Source of the DNA: Escherichia coli
Lineage (GTDB): Bacteria > Pseudomonadota > Gammaproteobacteria > Enterobacterales > Enterobacteriaceae
DNA: 64,000 nucleotides
Assembly: GCF_003334765.1 (NCBI RefSeq)
Contig: NZ_QOWT01000014.1
Reading direction: 5' to 3' (one strand)
This document shows, in pieces, positions 1 through 3,105 of this stretch. Within the stretch, counting starts at the first letter, position 1. Every line of letters starts with the position of its first letter. Both the position numbers and the translations under genes were made by a program. A model generated the notes under the pieces. That model made no database searches. It was given only the letters and a program-made list of their open reading frames with translations, and was not told the origin of the DNA.

Positions 1-68
1 CGTGTCAGTGGTGGCGCATTATAGGGAGTTATTCCGGCCTGACAAGAGGAAATTTAAAATAATTTTCT
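1..68 (-). promoter_or_regulatory. rrnB P1: rrnB P1 ribosomal RNA promoter (UP element, -35, -10, TSS) firing leftward out of the window
   Basis: Reverse complement of 1..70 reads TCAGAAAATTATTTTAAATTTCCTCTTGTCAGGCCGGAATAACTCCCTATAATGCGCCACCACTGACACG, matching the rrnB P1 sequence as I recall it: UP element 47..68, -35 TTGTCA 40..45, 16 bp spacer, -10 TATAAT 18..23, TSS near 9. Confidence 0.85.
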
Positions 69-90
69 GACCGCGCAACATTCAACCAAA

Positions 91-948
91 TCAGCCTAAA
101 ACTGCCAGTTTTTCGAGCGTTTCGAAGCCGTAACGCTGTAAAACGGGCAATAATTGTTCAGCTCCTGGCGTCATTGCCATACAAAAGGCAATATTCGCAT
201 CGGCAGATTTTGCATCCGGGGCTTCATGTTCTAACAACCAGGCCGTTCGGCGAGCAATCGCTGCGCCAGAATCCACCAGCCGGGTTCCCTCTGGCAGCAC
301 TTGTAACAGTTCTTCTTGTAGTAGAGGGAAATGGGTGCAACCCAATACAACGGTATCTGGCGGCTCTTTCATTCTTAACCACGGGCGTAGGATACGTTTT
401 AGTGCATCCAGAGAAACATCTTCGCCATGTAGCTTCGCTTCAGCCAACTCAACCATCTCTGCCGAGCCCAGCATTTCTATCTGGCATTCATTAGCGAAAC
501 GCGCGATCAGCTCATGAGTATAAGAACGTTTAATTGTTCCGCGGGTTGCCAGTAATCCGACAATGCCATTTGCCGTCAGACGTGCAGCAGGTTTAATCGC
601 CGGCACGACACCAACAACCGGGAAGTCGAACTTTTCGCGTAATGCAGGAAGTGAAACGGTACTGGCAGTGTTGCAAGCGACCACAGCCAGCGCAAGGGGA
701 TAACGTTCTTGCACCGCGGTGACAATTGCCACCACTCGCTCAACAATAAACGCTTCGCTTTTTTCGCCATACGGGAAAGCGACGTTATCGAAAGCATAAA
801 TGTAATGGAGATCCGGTAAGAGATGCCGGATCTCGTCATAGACCGACAACCCACCGACGCCGGAGTCAAACACCAGCACGGTGGGACGTGGTTCAGAAGG
901 TGTAGCTGCCAGACAAGGTGTATTCCCGTCCTGCAGTTTGGTAGCCAT
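91..948 (-). CDS. murI: glutamate racemase
   Basis: ORF 91..960 translation recognised as MurI ([40 protein letters not shown]...); start set to the MATKL Met, giving 285 aa. Confidence 0.93.
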
Positions 949-2737
949 AGACTGTCTCATAATCTTTGTCGAACAGGTTGGCTATTTTACCACGAACTGT
1001 CAGGTGAGAGGTGACCGGATACGCAACCGCAAGATCCCACAAGCTCACACCGCCCATTTTAACGGTTTGATAAGGATAAGATGAGTAATCCTTATCATAG
1101 CGAGTGCCTAAATACTGATAAGTAATACCCCAGTCGAAGTCATACAACTGCCAGTCGAGCTGGTATTTCACCTGCTGTTTAGCACGGCGTAACAACGGCG
1201 TGTCGGTAATCGCATTGCGCGCATCGACATAATCATAACTCACAGTATGCGTCAGTGGTCCGGTATCAAAATTGGCGGTCGCCTCGACGCCCTTAATCCG
1301 CGCTTTCCCTTCGTTGTAATATTTCAGGGTGTGATCATCATAATCGATCAAGTCACTGACATCGTTACGATATCCGGAAATACGCCAGTTCACCCCAGCG
1401 GTTAAGCCTTCAAACGCGCCTTCCCACTGTTTGCTTTTCTCCGGGTCCAGATTCGGATTTCCGTAGAAGCCATACAGTTGCCCCAGATTTGGTGCCTTAT
1501 AAGATGTCCCGTAGGAAGCAATGAAGCGATAACCTTCGATGAATTCCCAACCGGCGCTGGTTTGCCAGGTTCCATGACGACCAAACTGTGAGTTATCGTC
1601 ACTGCGTGCTGCGCCTTCAAAGGTAAAATCGCCGACTTGTTGCAGCCCGGTCAGATAGATGCCGGTATTACGTTGATCATATCCATCCTCAACATAACCT
1701 GTACCCGGCGTCGTAGTCTGTTTCTGCCAGTCGACACCCGCACCAATACTACCGTGACCAACGATGACATTGTTTGCCCACTGGACGGTGTATTGCTTCA
1801 TCTCATCGAGCGTCGCCGACGAATCATAACGACCATAATGGGGATCGTAGTTGTAATCTTTGCTATGGCTATAGCTGGTAATGAGTTGTGATTTAATCAG
1901 TTCGCCGTTATAGCGCAGCCCGGCGTCCCAACTTTGGCTATAGAGTTTACGGGTATCGAGCAACGGTGAACCGGGAGAATAATACGCGTCATAATTGGTA
2001 CGGTTATCATAGCCATAGCCGCGCACAAAGCCGCTCCAGGCATCAGTAAAGTTATGCTCCAGCGCGCCATAAAGCGTTTTACTTAAAAAACCATCGTTAT
2101 CTGTCTGCGCTTGCGTTCCGGTATTACCATAGGCAACAACATCATAACCATGAGTATGGGCATAATCGCCCAACAGCGTTACCCGTGTCTTATCCCCCAG
2201 TTGTTGCTGCGTAGAGACATCATAGTTCTGATAACTATTGCTTCCCCACCCTGCTGAAATTTCCGTTCCGGGTTCATCGCGCGTCGTGATGATATTCACC
2301 ACCCCGCCTATTGCATCGGAACCATAAACAGCGGAGCGCGGCCCACGGATATATTCAACACGCTGGACAAGCGCAATAGGGAACTGGCTAAGGTCGGCAG
2401 AACCACTCACCCCCGCCAGATTCAGGCGTACGCCATCAATTAACACCAACACATGACTGGCATTTGTACCGCGAATAAAAATAGATGAGAGCTGACCTGA
2501 ACCGCCGTTTTGGGTGATATCGACGCCCGGAAGACGGCGCAGCACATCATTGACCGAGGTCGACTGCCAGCGGTCGATATCCTGACGGGTCACAACGGTG
2601 GTTGGTGCAAGCACAGTGCTGCGCGGCTGTTCAAAACGGTTAGCAGTAACGACGAGAGTATCCGGGCTGGTATCCTGTGCCCAAGCGGAAAATGCCGTGA
2701 CGGAACACGCCGTCAGCAGCGAAGCTTTTTTAATCAT
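893..2737 (-). CDS. btuB: TonB-dependent vitamin B12 outer membrane transporter
   Basis: ORF translation recognised as BtuB; signal peptide [20 protein letters not shown], TonB box DTLVVTA, C-terminal Phe; start at MIKK gives 614 aa. The 3' end overlaps the murI start. Confidence 0.95.
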
Positions 2738-2977
2738 TGTAAAGCATCCACAATAGAAGAAGGATGCCGCAGGTTTCATCAATATTACGCGATGATGAGA
2801 ACCAGATGCGACGTTGGCCGGCAGGTCTTCGGGCTTGGAGGGGTATCTAAGATACTAAGAGATGATGACTTCCCACCGAATGGCAGTGTCCGCATAACGC
2901 AATCATCGCACCTTTCCTTACCGCTGCGCGTCAGCTCCAGATTCGCACTGGATTCCCTATTAACTCACAGGACCGGC
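2738..2977 (-). promoter_or_regulatory. cobalamin (adenosylcobalamin) riboswitch in the btuB 5' leader
   Basis: Minus-strand sequence from 2977 reads GCCGGTCCTGTGAGTTAATAGGGAATCCAGTGCGAATCTGGAGCTGACGCGCAGCGGTAAGGAAAGGTGCG... through to the btuB ATG, matching the ~240 nt btuB leader as I recall it. Confidence 0.85.
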
Positions 2978-3105
2978 AAGTGGATGCTACAGGTTGTAAC
3001 AAGTTACTGTCCAGACGTAGCTCACAAATAGGAATTCATCAAGATCTGGACATCTGATGAGCAATCCCTACAATCGCCGCGTACTTTAATTTTTCAGGAT
3101 ACATC

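Follow-up and report, generated by a model that had tools for sequence, protein, structure and literature searches.

The conserved 56-bp btuB–murI overlap of Enterobacterales and its possible place within two interleaved transcription units

Introduction

Translationally coupled genes in bacterial operons commonly share a short overlap of 1-4 nt, such as ATGA or TGATG. The btuB–murI junction of Escherichia coli resembles these junctions in that the two genes lie on the same strand and out of frame, with the downstream start inside the upstream ORF, but it differs in that the murI start lies 56 nt before the btuB stop, a distance too great for termination–reinitiation coupling, and in that transcript data point to separate transcripts. 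Internal promoters in upstream coding sequences are also well described, as for the ftsZ promoters within ddlB-ftsQ-ftsA of the E. coli dcw cluster. As at ftsZ, a promoter in the preceding ORF would drive an essential gene independently of the upstream promoter, whereas at murI the promoter, the leader, the ribosome-binding site and the first 18 codons would all lie inside btuB, and the btuB transcript appears to end within murI. The locus further resembles cases of overprinting or N-terminal extension, since the BtuB frame is old and constrained while the MurI tail is lineage-specific, variable and predicted to be disordered, and outgroups do not have the extension; unlike in overprinting proper, only the dispensable tail of an ancient enzyme is overprinted and no new protein is made. 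Finally, the stem-loop found here near the btuB transcript end is similar to intrinsic terminators and 3′-protective hairpins in being stable, G+C-rich, placed just before a mapped 3′ end and marked by compensatory changes, but it is intracoding and carries no canonical U-tract, and transcription from the murI promoter has to pass it.

The 56-bp overlap itself is already known, since it is annotated in E. coli K-12, and the literature records that it prevents a clean btuB knockout and that btuB is absent from the Keio collection. Here, we analysed the junction in a window of 64,000 nucleotides of E. coli DNA (contig NZ_QOWT01000014.1, assembly GCF_003334765.1). What the present analysis adds is the breadth of conservation, the asymmetry of the constraint and the transcript architecture that surrounds the overlap.

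Results

Geometry of the overlap and identity of the two proteins

The overlap is formed by the following features of the window:
893..2737, minus strand: btuB coding sequence, 614 aa, TonB-dependent cobalamin outer-membrane transporter (RefSeq, Pfam, PDB).
91..948, minus strand: murI coding sequence, 285 aa, glutamate racemase (RefSeq, Pfam, PDB).
893..948, minus strand: btuB/murI overlap, 56 nt read in two frames, matching the RefSeq geometry.

The murI gene is read in the +1 frame relative to btuB, whose TGA stop codon occupies 895-893 on the minus strand. Read as btuB, the region 893-948 opens with two nucleotides from a Tyr codon, which are followed by 17 sense codons and the stop codon. 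It spans BtuB residues 597-614 with their stop codon and, in the other frame, MurI residues 1-18 and two nucleotides of codon 19. The initial annotation, which had the last 18 btuB codons read in another frame as the first codons of murI, was essentially right, and 893-948 is confirmed as the shared region. The same geometry is given in the RefSeq annotation of strain DL21 and in that of K-12 MG1655 (NC_000913.3; btuB 4163639-4165483, b3966; murI 4165428-4166285, b3967), where the overlap is likewise 56 bp. The overlap of MG1655 is identical to that of the window, and the junction matches K-12-type genomes at 100%.

Both proteins were assigned by domain and structure matches. BtuB carries the Pfam domains PF07715 (Plug) and PF00593 (TonB_dep_Rec_b-barrel) expected of a cobalamin transporter, and the structures in PDB (1NQE and others) span residues 21-614, including the C-terminus encoded in the overlap. 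MurI matches PF01177 (Asp_Glu_race) over residues 34-234 (E=6.5e-22), as a glutamate racemase should, and aligns with PDB 2JFN, a 285-residue chain starting with MATKLQ, at E=1e-188 with one conservative difference (I/V). In the structural model of the MurI N-terminus, the pLDDT is below 50 at residues 1-14 and residues 1-20 have no secondary structure; in outgroups without btuB upstream (Shewanella decolorationis and Zooshikella), MurI has 3-5 residues ahead of its FDSGVGG core. The 18-19 MurI residues encoded in the overlap are probably a variable and, judging from the model, disordered N-terminal tail ahead of the racemase fold.

Conservation and constraint in the two reading frames

The exact 56-nt geometry and the murI ATG were kept in 80/80 Enterobacteriaceae species. 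Outside this family, the identical geometry was seen in Proteus, Serratia, Xenorhabdus and Providencia, four genera that represent two more families; in all four the gene order is trmA (minus strand), btuB, murI. The initial annotation had named conservation as a check on the overlap, and the outcome speaks in its favour. Over the range sampled, namely Enterobacterales, the same-strand, out-of-frame overlap is conserved order-wide, and it is of ancient origin; it would have arisen when the murI initiation region came to sit within the btuB 3′ end. An out-of-frame ATG that stays open into the downstream ORF is, by chance alone, not improbable; it is the conservation that marks the present one as real. 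All sequences from a first homologue search were above 85% identity. Among the representatives at 46-56% identity that were examined, one was a named insect secondary endosymbiont (P0125) and the remainder lay on AT-rich contigs without btuB, which are uninformative about the origin of the overlap.

At the nucleotide level, the two flanks had diversities of 0.33 and 0.21, and the overlap one of 0.04 (pi). Among the 1145 windows of 56 nt in 1.2 kb, the overlap was the most conserved (rank 1-2). Third-position diversity fell from ~0.5 outside to 0.03-0.05 inside the overlap in both frames. With the reservation that kinship among the species inflates every count of invariant sites in this study, 7/18 btuB third positions in the overlap were invariant and 17/18 were at least 95% identical, compared with 3/167 invariant far upstream, and 13/17 murI third positions were invariant in the overlap versus 3/153. 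Of the substitution types seen, 16 were synonymous only in BtuB and 4 only in MurI, with 37 of each possible, and across five genera the BtuB C-terminus was 83% identical and the MurI N-terminus 51%. Hence, the expectation that both proteins are constrained was borne out by the collapse of third-position diversity in both frames, with the qualification that the constraint is asymmetric (16 vs 4) and that BtuB, with its last beta-strand, which ends in the C-terminal ...SYTF, is the dominant coding constraint. Published transposon insertions inside the overlap are tolerated, with a 10-fold orientation bias, so the first ~18 MurI residues are dispensable, and the constraint in the murI frame may therefore act partly on the nucleotides rather than on the protein.

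Conservation of the murI start codon and its upstream GAG

Three features bear on the start of murI:
946..948, minus strand: murI start ATG, inside the BtuB Tyr-Gly codons (T-ATG-G), present in 80/80 species and the four other genera.
956..958, minus strand: conserved GAG (a BtuB Glu codon) 8-10 nt upstream of the ATG, a candidate weak Shine-Dalgarno-like element.
958..960, minus strand: in-frame ATG further upstream, which opens the longest ORF (289 aa; 68-nt overlap) but is not the conserved start.

The ATG at 948 was present in 85/85 sequences. The Tyr codon that supplies its first two letters was TAT in 84/84 loci, while the pooled Tyr codons of btuB were 57% TAT and 43% TAC. The GAG was invariant in 84/84 loci although 58% of the pooled btuB Glu codons are GAA. 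Among the degenerate codon columns in which the BtuB residue is invariant, only 5/71 also had an invariant codon; 4 of these 5 fell within the last 21 codons, and these four include the TAT that forms the murI ATG and the GAG. The start codon is conserved beyond what BtuB requires, as is expected of a genuine translated overlap. These patterns point to the ATG at 948 as the murI start in vivo, and the sequence context suggests the GAG as a putative ribosome-binding element. The upstream ATG (958..960) was present in 1/80 species, and within E. coli its site read TAT, which makes the ATG, in 4701 genomes and TAC in 711. Two published resources searched for the protein or gene gave no entry: the TRAINSPOTTER N-terminomics data for murI or P22634, and the TetRP supplements for murI or b3967.

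A candidate murI promoter inside btuB

Upstream of the start codon, two further features were placed:
984..992, minus strand: candidate murI promoter, an extended -10 element TGgTAAAAT across the BtuB codons Arg-Gly-Lys-Ile, proposed from conservation and a nearby 5′ end.
976, minus strand: 5′ triphosphate end of a murI-only transcript, K-12 4165400 (SMRT-Cappable-seq, PMC6131387).

The element lies 36-44 nt upstream of the murI ATG. Its T, G, T, A, A, A and T (TGnTAnAAT) showed no variation across 85/85 sequences, not even at the third positions of the CGT and GGT/GCT codons, and the key positions of the extended -10 consensus (TG, T-12, A-11, T-7) were matched in all 85; 992-984 thereby carries the TGn and the hexamer with A as its second and T as its sixth base that define a sigma-70 extended -10 sequence. 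In the 48 nt before the ATG, 9/16 btuB third positions were invariant, compared with 3/167 far upstream (p=4e-9). A simple promoter scan, which requires a -35 hexamer, did not report the element. Another promoter candidate, TTATCA-16-TATGAT at window 1121-1094, was rejected on its assigned last-codon Asp column, which reads GAT in 45 cases and GAC in 37.

A published long-read dataset lists a murI-only primary transcript with 121 reads in rich medium, starting 28 nt upstream of the ATG inside btuB (PMC6131387 Supplementary Data 1). In this single dataset, the 5′ end at 4165400 follows the -10 hexamer after 7 intervening nucleotides, within the 5-9 nt spacing of sigma-70 extended -10 promoters. 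The nucleotide reported at 4165400 is C rather than a purine, and the position is possibly off by 1-2 nt. The Cappable-seq 2016 supplements had no entry near this site, and the tables searched give no published 5′ end between the btuB start and 4165400. Taken with the conservation, the spacing argues that TGgTAAAAT is the promoter for this 5′ end. The murI gene is probably transcribed from a promoter of its own within btuB instead of depending on the btuB message. Since the murI-only transcript lacks a btuB-frame start codon, no btuB ribosomes cross the murI start on it. The fold of the 28-nt leader together with the start region gave z=-0.6, that is, no significant structure, and occlusion of the murI start by RNA structure was therefore dropped from consideration. 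Expression of murI would thus begin at an extended -10 written in btuB synonymous positions, which would start the transcript ~28 nt ahead of the start codon; a leader that is short and unstructured, together with the weak GAG Shine-Dalgarno, would then lead to translation from the ATG at 948, and productive murI mRNA would be mostly distinct from btuB mRNA.

The btuB transcript and a conserved hairpin within murI

The btuB transcript is delimited by the following features:
2984..3013, minus strand: btuB promoter-like site TGGACA-18-TAGCAT (promoter scan).
2803..2992, minus strand: cobalamin riboswitch of the btuB leader (Rfam RF00174, 87 bits, E=2e-21; RefSeq-annotated).
808..834, minus strand: 9-bp hairpin GAGAUCCGG / CCGGAUCUC with a 9-nt loop, murI codons 39-47, a candidate btuB 3′-end or terminator element.
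804, minus strand: 3′ end of the btuB-promoter transcript, K-12 4165572 (PMC6131387 Supplementary Data 1, M9 medium).

The published btuB transcript start, K-12 4163398 or window 2978 (PMC6131387), lies 6 nt downstream of the promoter-like site, which was found independently of it, and comes from the same dataset as the murI 5′ end. A cobalamin riboswitch in the 5′ leader is as expected for a btuB gene. The transcripts from this promoter (4163398-4165572) were published with 21 reads at the start, 10 at the 3′ end and 0 passing through (PMC6131387); these btuB reads are low in number, and a single dataset underlies the murI start as well as the btuB 3′ end, the two having been recorded in different media. 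The Term-seq tables of PMC7815308 contain 3′ ends in the btuB leader and early ORF only, and none at 4165572.

The 3′ end at 4165572 is 144 nt into murI and 4 nt past the hairpin. The stem has 6/9 G-C pairs, and the 66-nt region around it has an MFE of -18.7 kcal/mol with a fold z=-3.0. At least 8/9 pairs could form in 83/85 species; the hairpin cells were paired in 93.6% of cases versus 21-57% in slid controls, and compensatory changes at 2 pairs (13 cells) were matched by 0/500 shuffles. The compensatory changes even accept amino-acid substitutions. In Proteus the hairpin is degraded, with 6/9 pairs left, and in Providencia, with 3/9, it is lost. The segment 834-808 has the G+C-rich hairpin of an intrinsic terminator, yet the stem is followed by CAUUACAUUUAUGCUUUC instead of a U run, the terminator scan did not flag it, and an Rfam scan found no known RNA family in the overlap or the hairpin. 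The position and conservation of the stem suggest that the 3′ end is due to the hairpin, which would either terminate transcription or shield the RNA from exonucleases, so that transcripts from the riboswitch-controlled btuB promoter would end at this conserved structure inside murI (834-808).

Discussion

It is very probable that the overlap is genuine and translated from the ATG at window 948, because both this codon and the exact 56-nt geometry are conserved. Were the annotated start an artefact, with murI truly beginning at a GTG past the btuB stop (codon 24 or 26; window 879-877 and 873-871), the two genes would share no translated sequence. Such a start might be read from the tolerance of transposon insertions within the overlap, from the predicted disorder of MurI residues 1-20 and their position outside the Pfam domain, and from the outgroup proteins that begin just ahead of the FDSGVGG core. 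We consider it highly improbable, since these GTGs are start-capable in only 59/80 species as against an ATG in 85/85, neither TAT nor the upstream GAG varies although BtuB would allow synonymous codons at both, murI-frame third positions in the overlap are invariant at 13/17, the published transcript start leaves a 28-nt leader before the ATG, and inspection of the sequence revealed no Shine-Dalgarno-like motif upstream of the GTGs; the 10-fold orientation bias of the insertions is also what would be expected if the transposon supplies expression signals. A longer overlap of 68 nt, with murI starting at the upstream ATG (960-958) as a protein of 289 aa (MRQSMATK...), deserves almost no credence. 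This ATG opens the longest ORF in the window and falls within the mapped leader at a distance of 16 nt from its 5′ terminus, but it is missing in 79/80 species and, as TAC, in 711/5412 E. coli genomes; RefSeq uses the 285-aa start, and, again from sequence inspection, no Shine-Dalgarno-like sequence precedes the upstream codon.

How murI is transcribed is less firmly settled than where it starts. In a classical operon, murI would be made mainly from a bicistronic btuB–murI mRNA, by de novo initiation while btuB ribosomes cross the ATG, and the initial annotation had similarly placed murI initiation on the mRNA being translated for btuB. That statement holds in so far as the btuB-promoter transcript (4163398-4165572) includes the murI start at 4165428, but it is not supported as the main route, with 0 of the 21 btuB-promoter reads going beyond the 3′ end inside murI and 121 reads for a murI-only primary transcript. 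Translational coupling is likewise not indicated: the btuB stop is 53-55 nt downstream of the murI start, and none of the 21 reads runs through murI. Other authors treat btuB–murI as one operon (PMC10802341), and two 'transcriptional contexts' listed for murI in rich medium suggest that a longer transcript may exist (PMC6131387 Supplementary Data 4). Nevertheless, an operon would tie an essential gene to a B12-repressed and often inactivated receptor whose 5′ deletions, nonsense alleles and replaced alleles are viable, and it does not explain why synonymous sites 36-48 nt upstream of the ATG are under such strong constraint, so we regard it as unlikely. This constraint could instead mark an mRNA element, with TGgTAAAAT and its flanks acting as an A-rich ribosome standby site or enhancer on a longer transcript and the 4165400 end being minor or artefactual. 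The region is A-rich and unstructured, the transcript start comes from one dataset and its reported 5′ base is a pyrimidine, all of which would suit such an element; against it, the extended -10 consensus fits at all key positions in 85/85 sequences, the spacing to the 5′ end is in the normal range, and Cappable-seq enriches triphosphate ends, of which 121 reads begin at 4165400. We judge the mRNA element quite doubtful.

A separate murI transcript, together with btuB transcripts that end in murI, leads to the reading of two interleaved transcription units. We lean, with some reserve, towards btuB and murI being such units, with control elements in each other's coding sequence, conserved in much of Enterobacterales and insulating murI; the murI promoter, leader, ribosome-binding site and first 18 codons may, in this arrangement, be encoded within the last two beta-strands of BtuB, using synonymous and non-synonymous positions. 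The package as a whole, namely the conserved overlap, the murI promoter of its own, the btuB 3′ end at the hairpin, and interleaved units with insulation, is in our assessment fairly likely. From interleaving it follows that the essential murI would be shielded from riboswitch repression by B12 and from disruption of btuB, which suggests insulation of murI as the rationale. Several data on btuB alleles are consistent with this independence of murI: a published deletion of the first ~1000 bp of btuB is viable, the transposon insertions within the overlap are tolerated, a strain with an internal btuB stop keeps an intact murI, and in one E. coli isolate the BtuB protein is just 57% identical, with K-12-type sequence resuming ~60 nt before the murI ATG. 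The persistence of the overlap appears to be due to the location of expression signals and not to a new protein function.

In practical terms, the overlap explains why murI comes up as a false hit in BtuB-dependent phage screens, and it constrains recoding and genome refactoring at the btuB–murI locus. The present analysis also corrects the common assumption of a btuB–murI operon. About 190 nt serve two reading frames and also accommodate a promoter, the ribosome-binding region and an RNA hairpin, and this sharing leaves a measurable signature at synonymous sites. If murI indeed has its own promoter and btuB transcripts end within murI, control by the B12 riboswitch need not affect the supply of D-glutamate, nor need btuB nonsense and insertion mutations or horizontal allele replacement touch it. 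An essential cell-wall gene would then be insulated from the frequent loss and replacement of a phage and colicin receptor gene.

The 56-nt overlap and the murI start are conserved

The genes concerned lie as follows.

893-2737, minus strand: btuB CDS, 614 aa, within a long ORF (893-2782), ending ...GSYTF with TGA at 895-893
91-948, minus strand: murI CDS, 285 aa
893-948, minus strand: btuB/murI overlap, 56 nt, murI in frame +1 relative to btuB
2803-2992, minus strand: cobalamin riboswitch in the btuB leader

The protein identities were confirmed for MurI by Pfam Asp_Glu_race and a full-length match to PDB 2JFN, and for BtuB by the Pfam Plug and TonB-dependent barrel domains and a match to PDB 1NQE over residues 21-614. 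In gene orientation the junction reads ...GAT TAT GAG ACA GTC T/ATG/GC TAC CAA ... ACC TTC TGA, so that the murI ATG spans a Tyr-Gly codon pair of BtuB. The overlap at 893-948 given in the initial annotation is exact, and the same geometry is annotated by RefSeq in a K-12-like strain and in MG1655 (btuB 4163639-4165483, murI 4165428-4166285; window position = 948 - (K-12 position - 4165428)). As such it is already known from the standard K-12 annotation and from discussion in the literature.

An open frame behind an out-of-frame upstream ATG can well arise by chance, and comparative data were therefore used. A genome scan returned 80 Enterobacteriaceae species, and all 80 had an ATG at the homologous position with the btuB stop 53-55 nt downstream; 79 were found directly, and the last, locus L065, carried only a homopolymer frameshift further upstream in btuB. 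The 56-nt overlap and the order trmA(-), btuB, murI recurred in Proteus (MurI 66% identical), Serratia, Xenorhabdus and Providencia. The overlap therefore dates back to the common ancestor of Enterobacteriaceae, Yersiniaceae and Morganellaceae or earlier. The overlap was the most conserved 56-nt window of the 1.2 kb examined (rank 1-2 of 1145 windows), with a nucleotide diversity of 0.04 vs. 0.33 in btuB-only and 0.21 in murI-only sequence, and third-position diversity in both frames fell from ~0.5 to 0.03-0.05 inside it. Among 71 BtuB columns with an invariant degenerate amino acid, five used a single codon across all species, and four of these five were within the last 21 codons, including the TAT from which the murI ATG takes its 'AT' and the GAG located 8-10 nt before that ATG. 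The rival starts were not conserved: the GTGs at murI codons 24 and 26, past the btuB stop, were start-capable in only 59/80 species, and the in-frame ATG further upstream (window 960), where the longest ORF (289 aa) begins, occurred in 1/80 and is a synonymous btuB polymorphism within E. coli (TAT in 4701 and TAC in 711 complete genomes). Collectively, the conserved geometry, the codon choice and the unconserved rival starts strongly support the annotated murI start on comparative grounds.

BtuB is the dominant frame

The initial annotation held that the overlap constrains both proteins. This is correct, but the comparisons indicate that the constraint is asymmetric and that BtuB is the dominant frame. 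Across five genera, the 18 residues encoded by the overlap were 83% identical in BtuB vs. 51% in MurI, and 16 observed substitution types were synonymous in BtuB only vs. 4 in MurI only, with 37 of each possible. The overlap encodes the C-terminal strand of BtuB, the last residue of which is Phe; a Phe-ended C-terminal strand is a recognition signature in outer-membrane protein assembly. On the MurI side, residues 1-19 stand ahead of the racemase fold. The AlphaFold2 model (mean pLDDT 92) has pLDDT < 50 for residues 1-14 and secondary structure only from residue 21, and the Pfam domain begins at residue 34. Where btuB is not upstream, as in Shewanella decolorationis and Zooshikella, MurI has only 3-5 residues ahead of the FDSGVGG core, and in relatives without btuB on AT-rich contigs, apparently from reduced genomes, the MurI N-termini are unrelated. 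In a TraDIS study, insertions inside the overlap were tolerated with a 10-fold orientation bias, which argues that MurI can do without its tail, provided that expression signals are available. The murI-frame constraint may thus be in part at the nucleotide level.

In the S. decolorationis locus L089 (CP031775.3, 1762-3819), trmA and murI are divergent neighbours, btuB is missing from the interval, and the MurI N-terminal extension is absent. An insertion of btuB at this position in an ancestor of the Enterobacterales may account for the difference, or else a loss of the gene in Shewanella.

A candidate murI promoter within btuB

The 48 nt that precede the murI ATG were as well conserved as the overlap, though they code for btuB only: 9/16 btuB third positions were invariant there vs. 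3/167 further upstream (Fisher p=4e-9). At the centre of this zone is a consensus match to an extended -10 element, and a mapped transcript 5' end lies downstream of it.

992-984, minus strand: candidate murI promoter, extended -10 TGgTAAAAT
976 (K-12 4165400), minus strand: murI transcript 5' end, 28 nt before the ATG and separated from the -10 hexamer by 7 intervening nt

The T, G, T, A, A, A and T of this element were invariant in 85/85 sequences, including third positions of Arg CGT and Gly/Ala GGT/GCT codons that are free to vary elsewhere in btuB. In the rich-medium SMRT-Cappable-seq data of Yan et al. (2018; Supplementary Data 1, PMC6131387), a transcript at 4165400-4166543 carries b3967 (murI) only, with 121 reads at its 5' end. 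The 28-nt leader showed no significant structure (z=-0.6).

The fifth invariant BtuB codon, a TAT (Tyr) in a conserved CaTATCC (window 1019-1021, minus strand; codon 42 from the C-terminus), may owe its invariance to chance; at ~71-73 nt before the murI ATG it is, on direct reading, too distant upstream to be the -35 of the proposed promoter. At the other end of murI, 46 nt downstream of its stop, a near-consensus sigma-70 promoter (TTGTCA-16-TATAAT, 11/12; window 18-45, minus strand) is presumably rrnB P1 and its UP element. RefSeq places a 16S rRNA gene next, and the published murI transcript passes it to end at K-12 4166543, past the window start. A weak, truncated Rfam match to the Yersinia sRNA Ysr197 (window 1-92, minus strand; 39 bits vs. 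a gathering score of 167, E=3e-7) is probably due to sequence conservation near the rrn promoter and not to an sRNA.

A published btuB transcript end next to a conserved hairpin inside murI

In M9 medium, the same dataset (PMC6131387) lists a transcript at 4163398-4165572 carrying b3966 (btuB) only, with 21 reads at its start, 10 at its end and 0 passing through. Its 5' end corresponds to window 2978, 6 nt downstream of an independently found promoter-like site. The 5' end also agrees with the btuB leader of ~240 nt, which lends some trust to the 5' ends of the dataset. Separately, published Term-seq data (PMC7815308) place 3' ends at K-12 4163564 and 4163679 (window ~2812 and ~2697, minus strand). 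The first falls in the riboswitch leader and the second 40 nt past the start of the btuB ORF, which points to transcripts that stop prematurely at the riboswitch and early in the coding sequence.

The btuB transcript 3' end, K-12 4165572 or window 804, lies 4 nt past a hairpin.

834-808, minus strand: perfect 9-bp hairpin GAGAUCCGG-N9-CCGGAUCUC, murI codons 39-47

The local fold at this site had z=-3.0, and at least 8/9 stem pairs were kept in 83/85 species; the stem was degraded in Proteus and lost in Providencia. In total, 93.6% of cells were paired vs. 21-57% with the partners slid. Compensatory double changes occurred at two pairs (A-U to G-C and C-G to U-A; 13 cells), a level matched by 0/500 shuffles. 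One compensation combined a synonymous Ile change with Asp-to-Asn, and the other Ile-to-Val with a synonymous Asp change; since amino-acid replacements were accepted, the RNA structure itself appears to be under selection. The hairpin has no U-tract, the terminator scan gave no flag at the site, and the independent Term-seq table (PMC7815308) has no 3' end there. It may act as a transcription terminator or shield a trimmed 3' end. Transcripts from the murI promoter may get past the hairpin because translating ribosomes melt it.

A proposed interleaving of the btuB and murI transcription units

The evidence best supports a mechanism in which the transcription units of btuB and murI interleave: the promoter and leader of murI, its weak GAG Shine-Dalgarno element and its first 18 codons would all lie within btuB, and the btuB transcript would end within murI. 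This reading has genetic support. Strains that lack the first ~1000 bp of btuB are viable. In the laboratory strain E. coli DL21 (locus L001, 1064-2908 = window 893-2737), btuB is annotated as a pseudogene with an internal stop and the overlapping murI is intact, consistent with murI expression independent of btuB translation. About 373 of 5426 complete E. coli genomes match <80% of window 600-1300. In the one example examined, E. coli AHB2 (locus L100, NZ_OZ547090.1, 830-2668 = window ~1010-2737), BtuB is 57% identical to the K-12 protein, nucleotide identity returns to 97-100% from ~60 nt ahead of the murI ATG, and the 56-bp overlap persists. This suggests that the btuB allele was replaced, the junction falling shortly before the proposed murI promoter. 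The initial annotation implied that murI translation initiates on btuB-translating mRNA; given the proposed interleaved units and the deletion, nonsense and replacement cases, this would be at most a minor route, and the read counts for the murI-only and btuB transcripts speak against it as the main one.

In the accessible literature we found no explicit description of the order-wide conservation or the BtuB-dominant asymmetry, and no explicit account of the extended -10 element or the covarying intragenic hairpin, though older murI promoter mapping may exist. These four points are put forward as hypotheses resting partly on one public dataset. Interleaved units would explain how the essential murI can overlap, and lie directly downstream of, the B12-repressed and often inactivated btuB.
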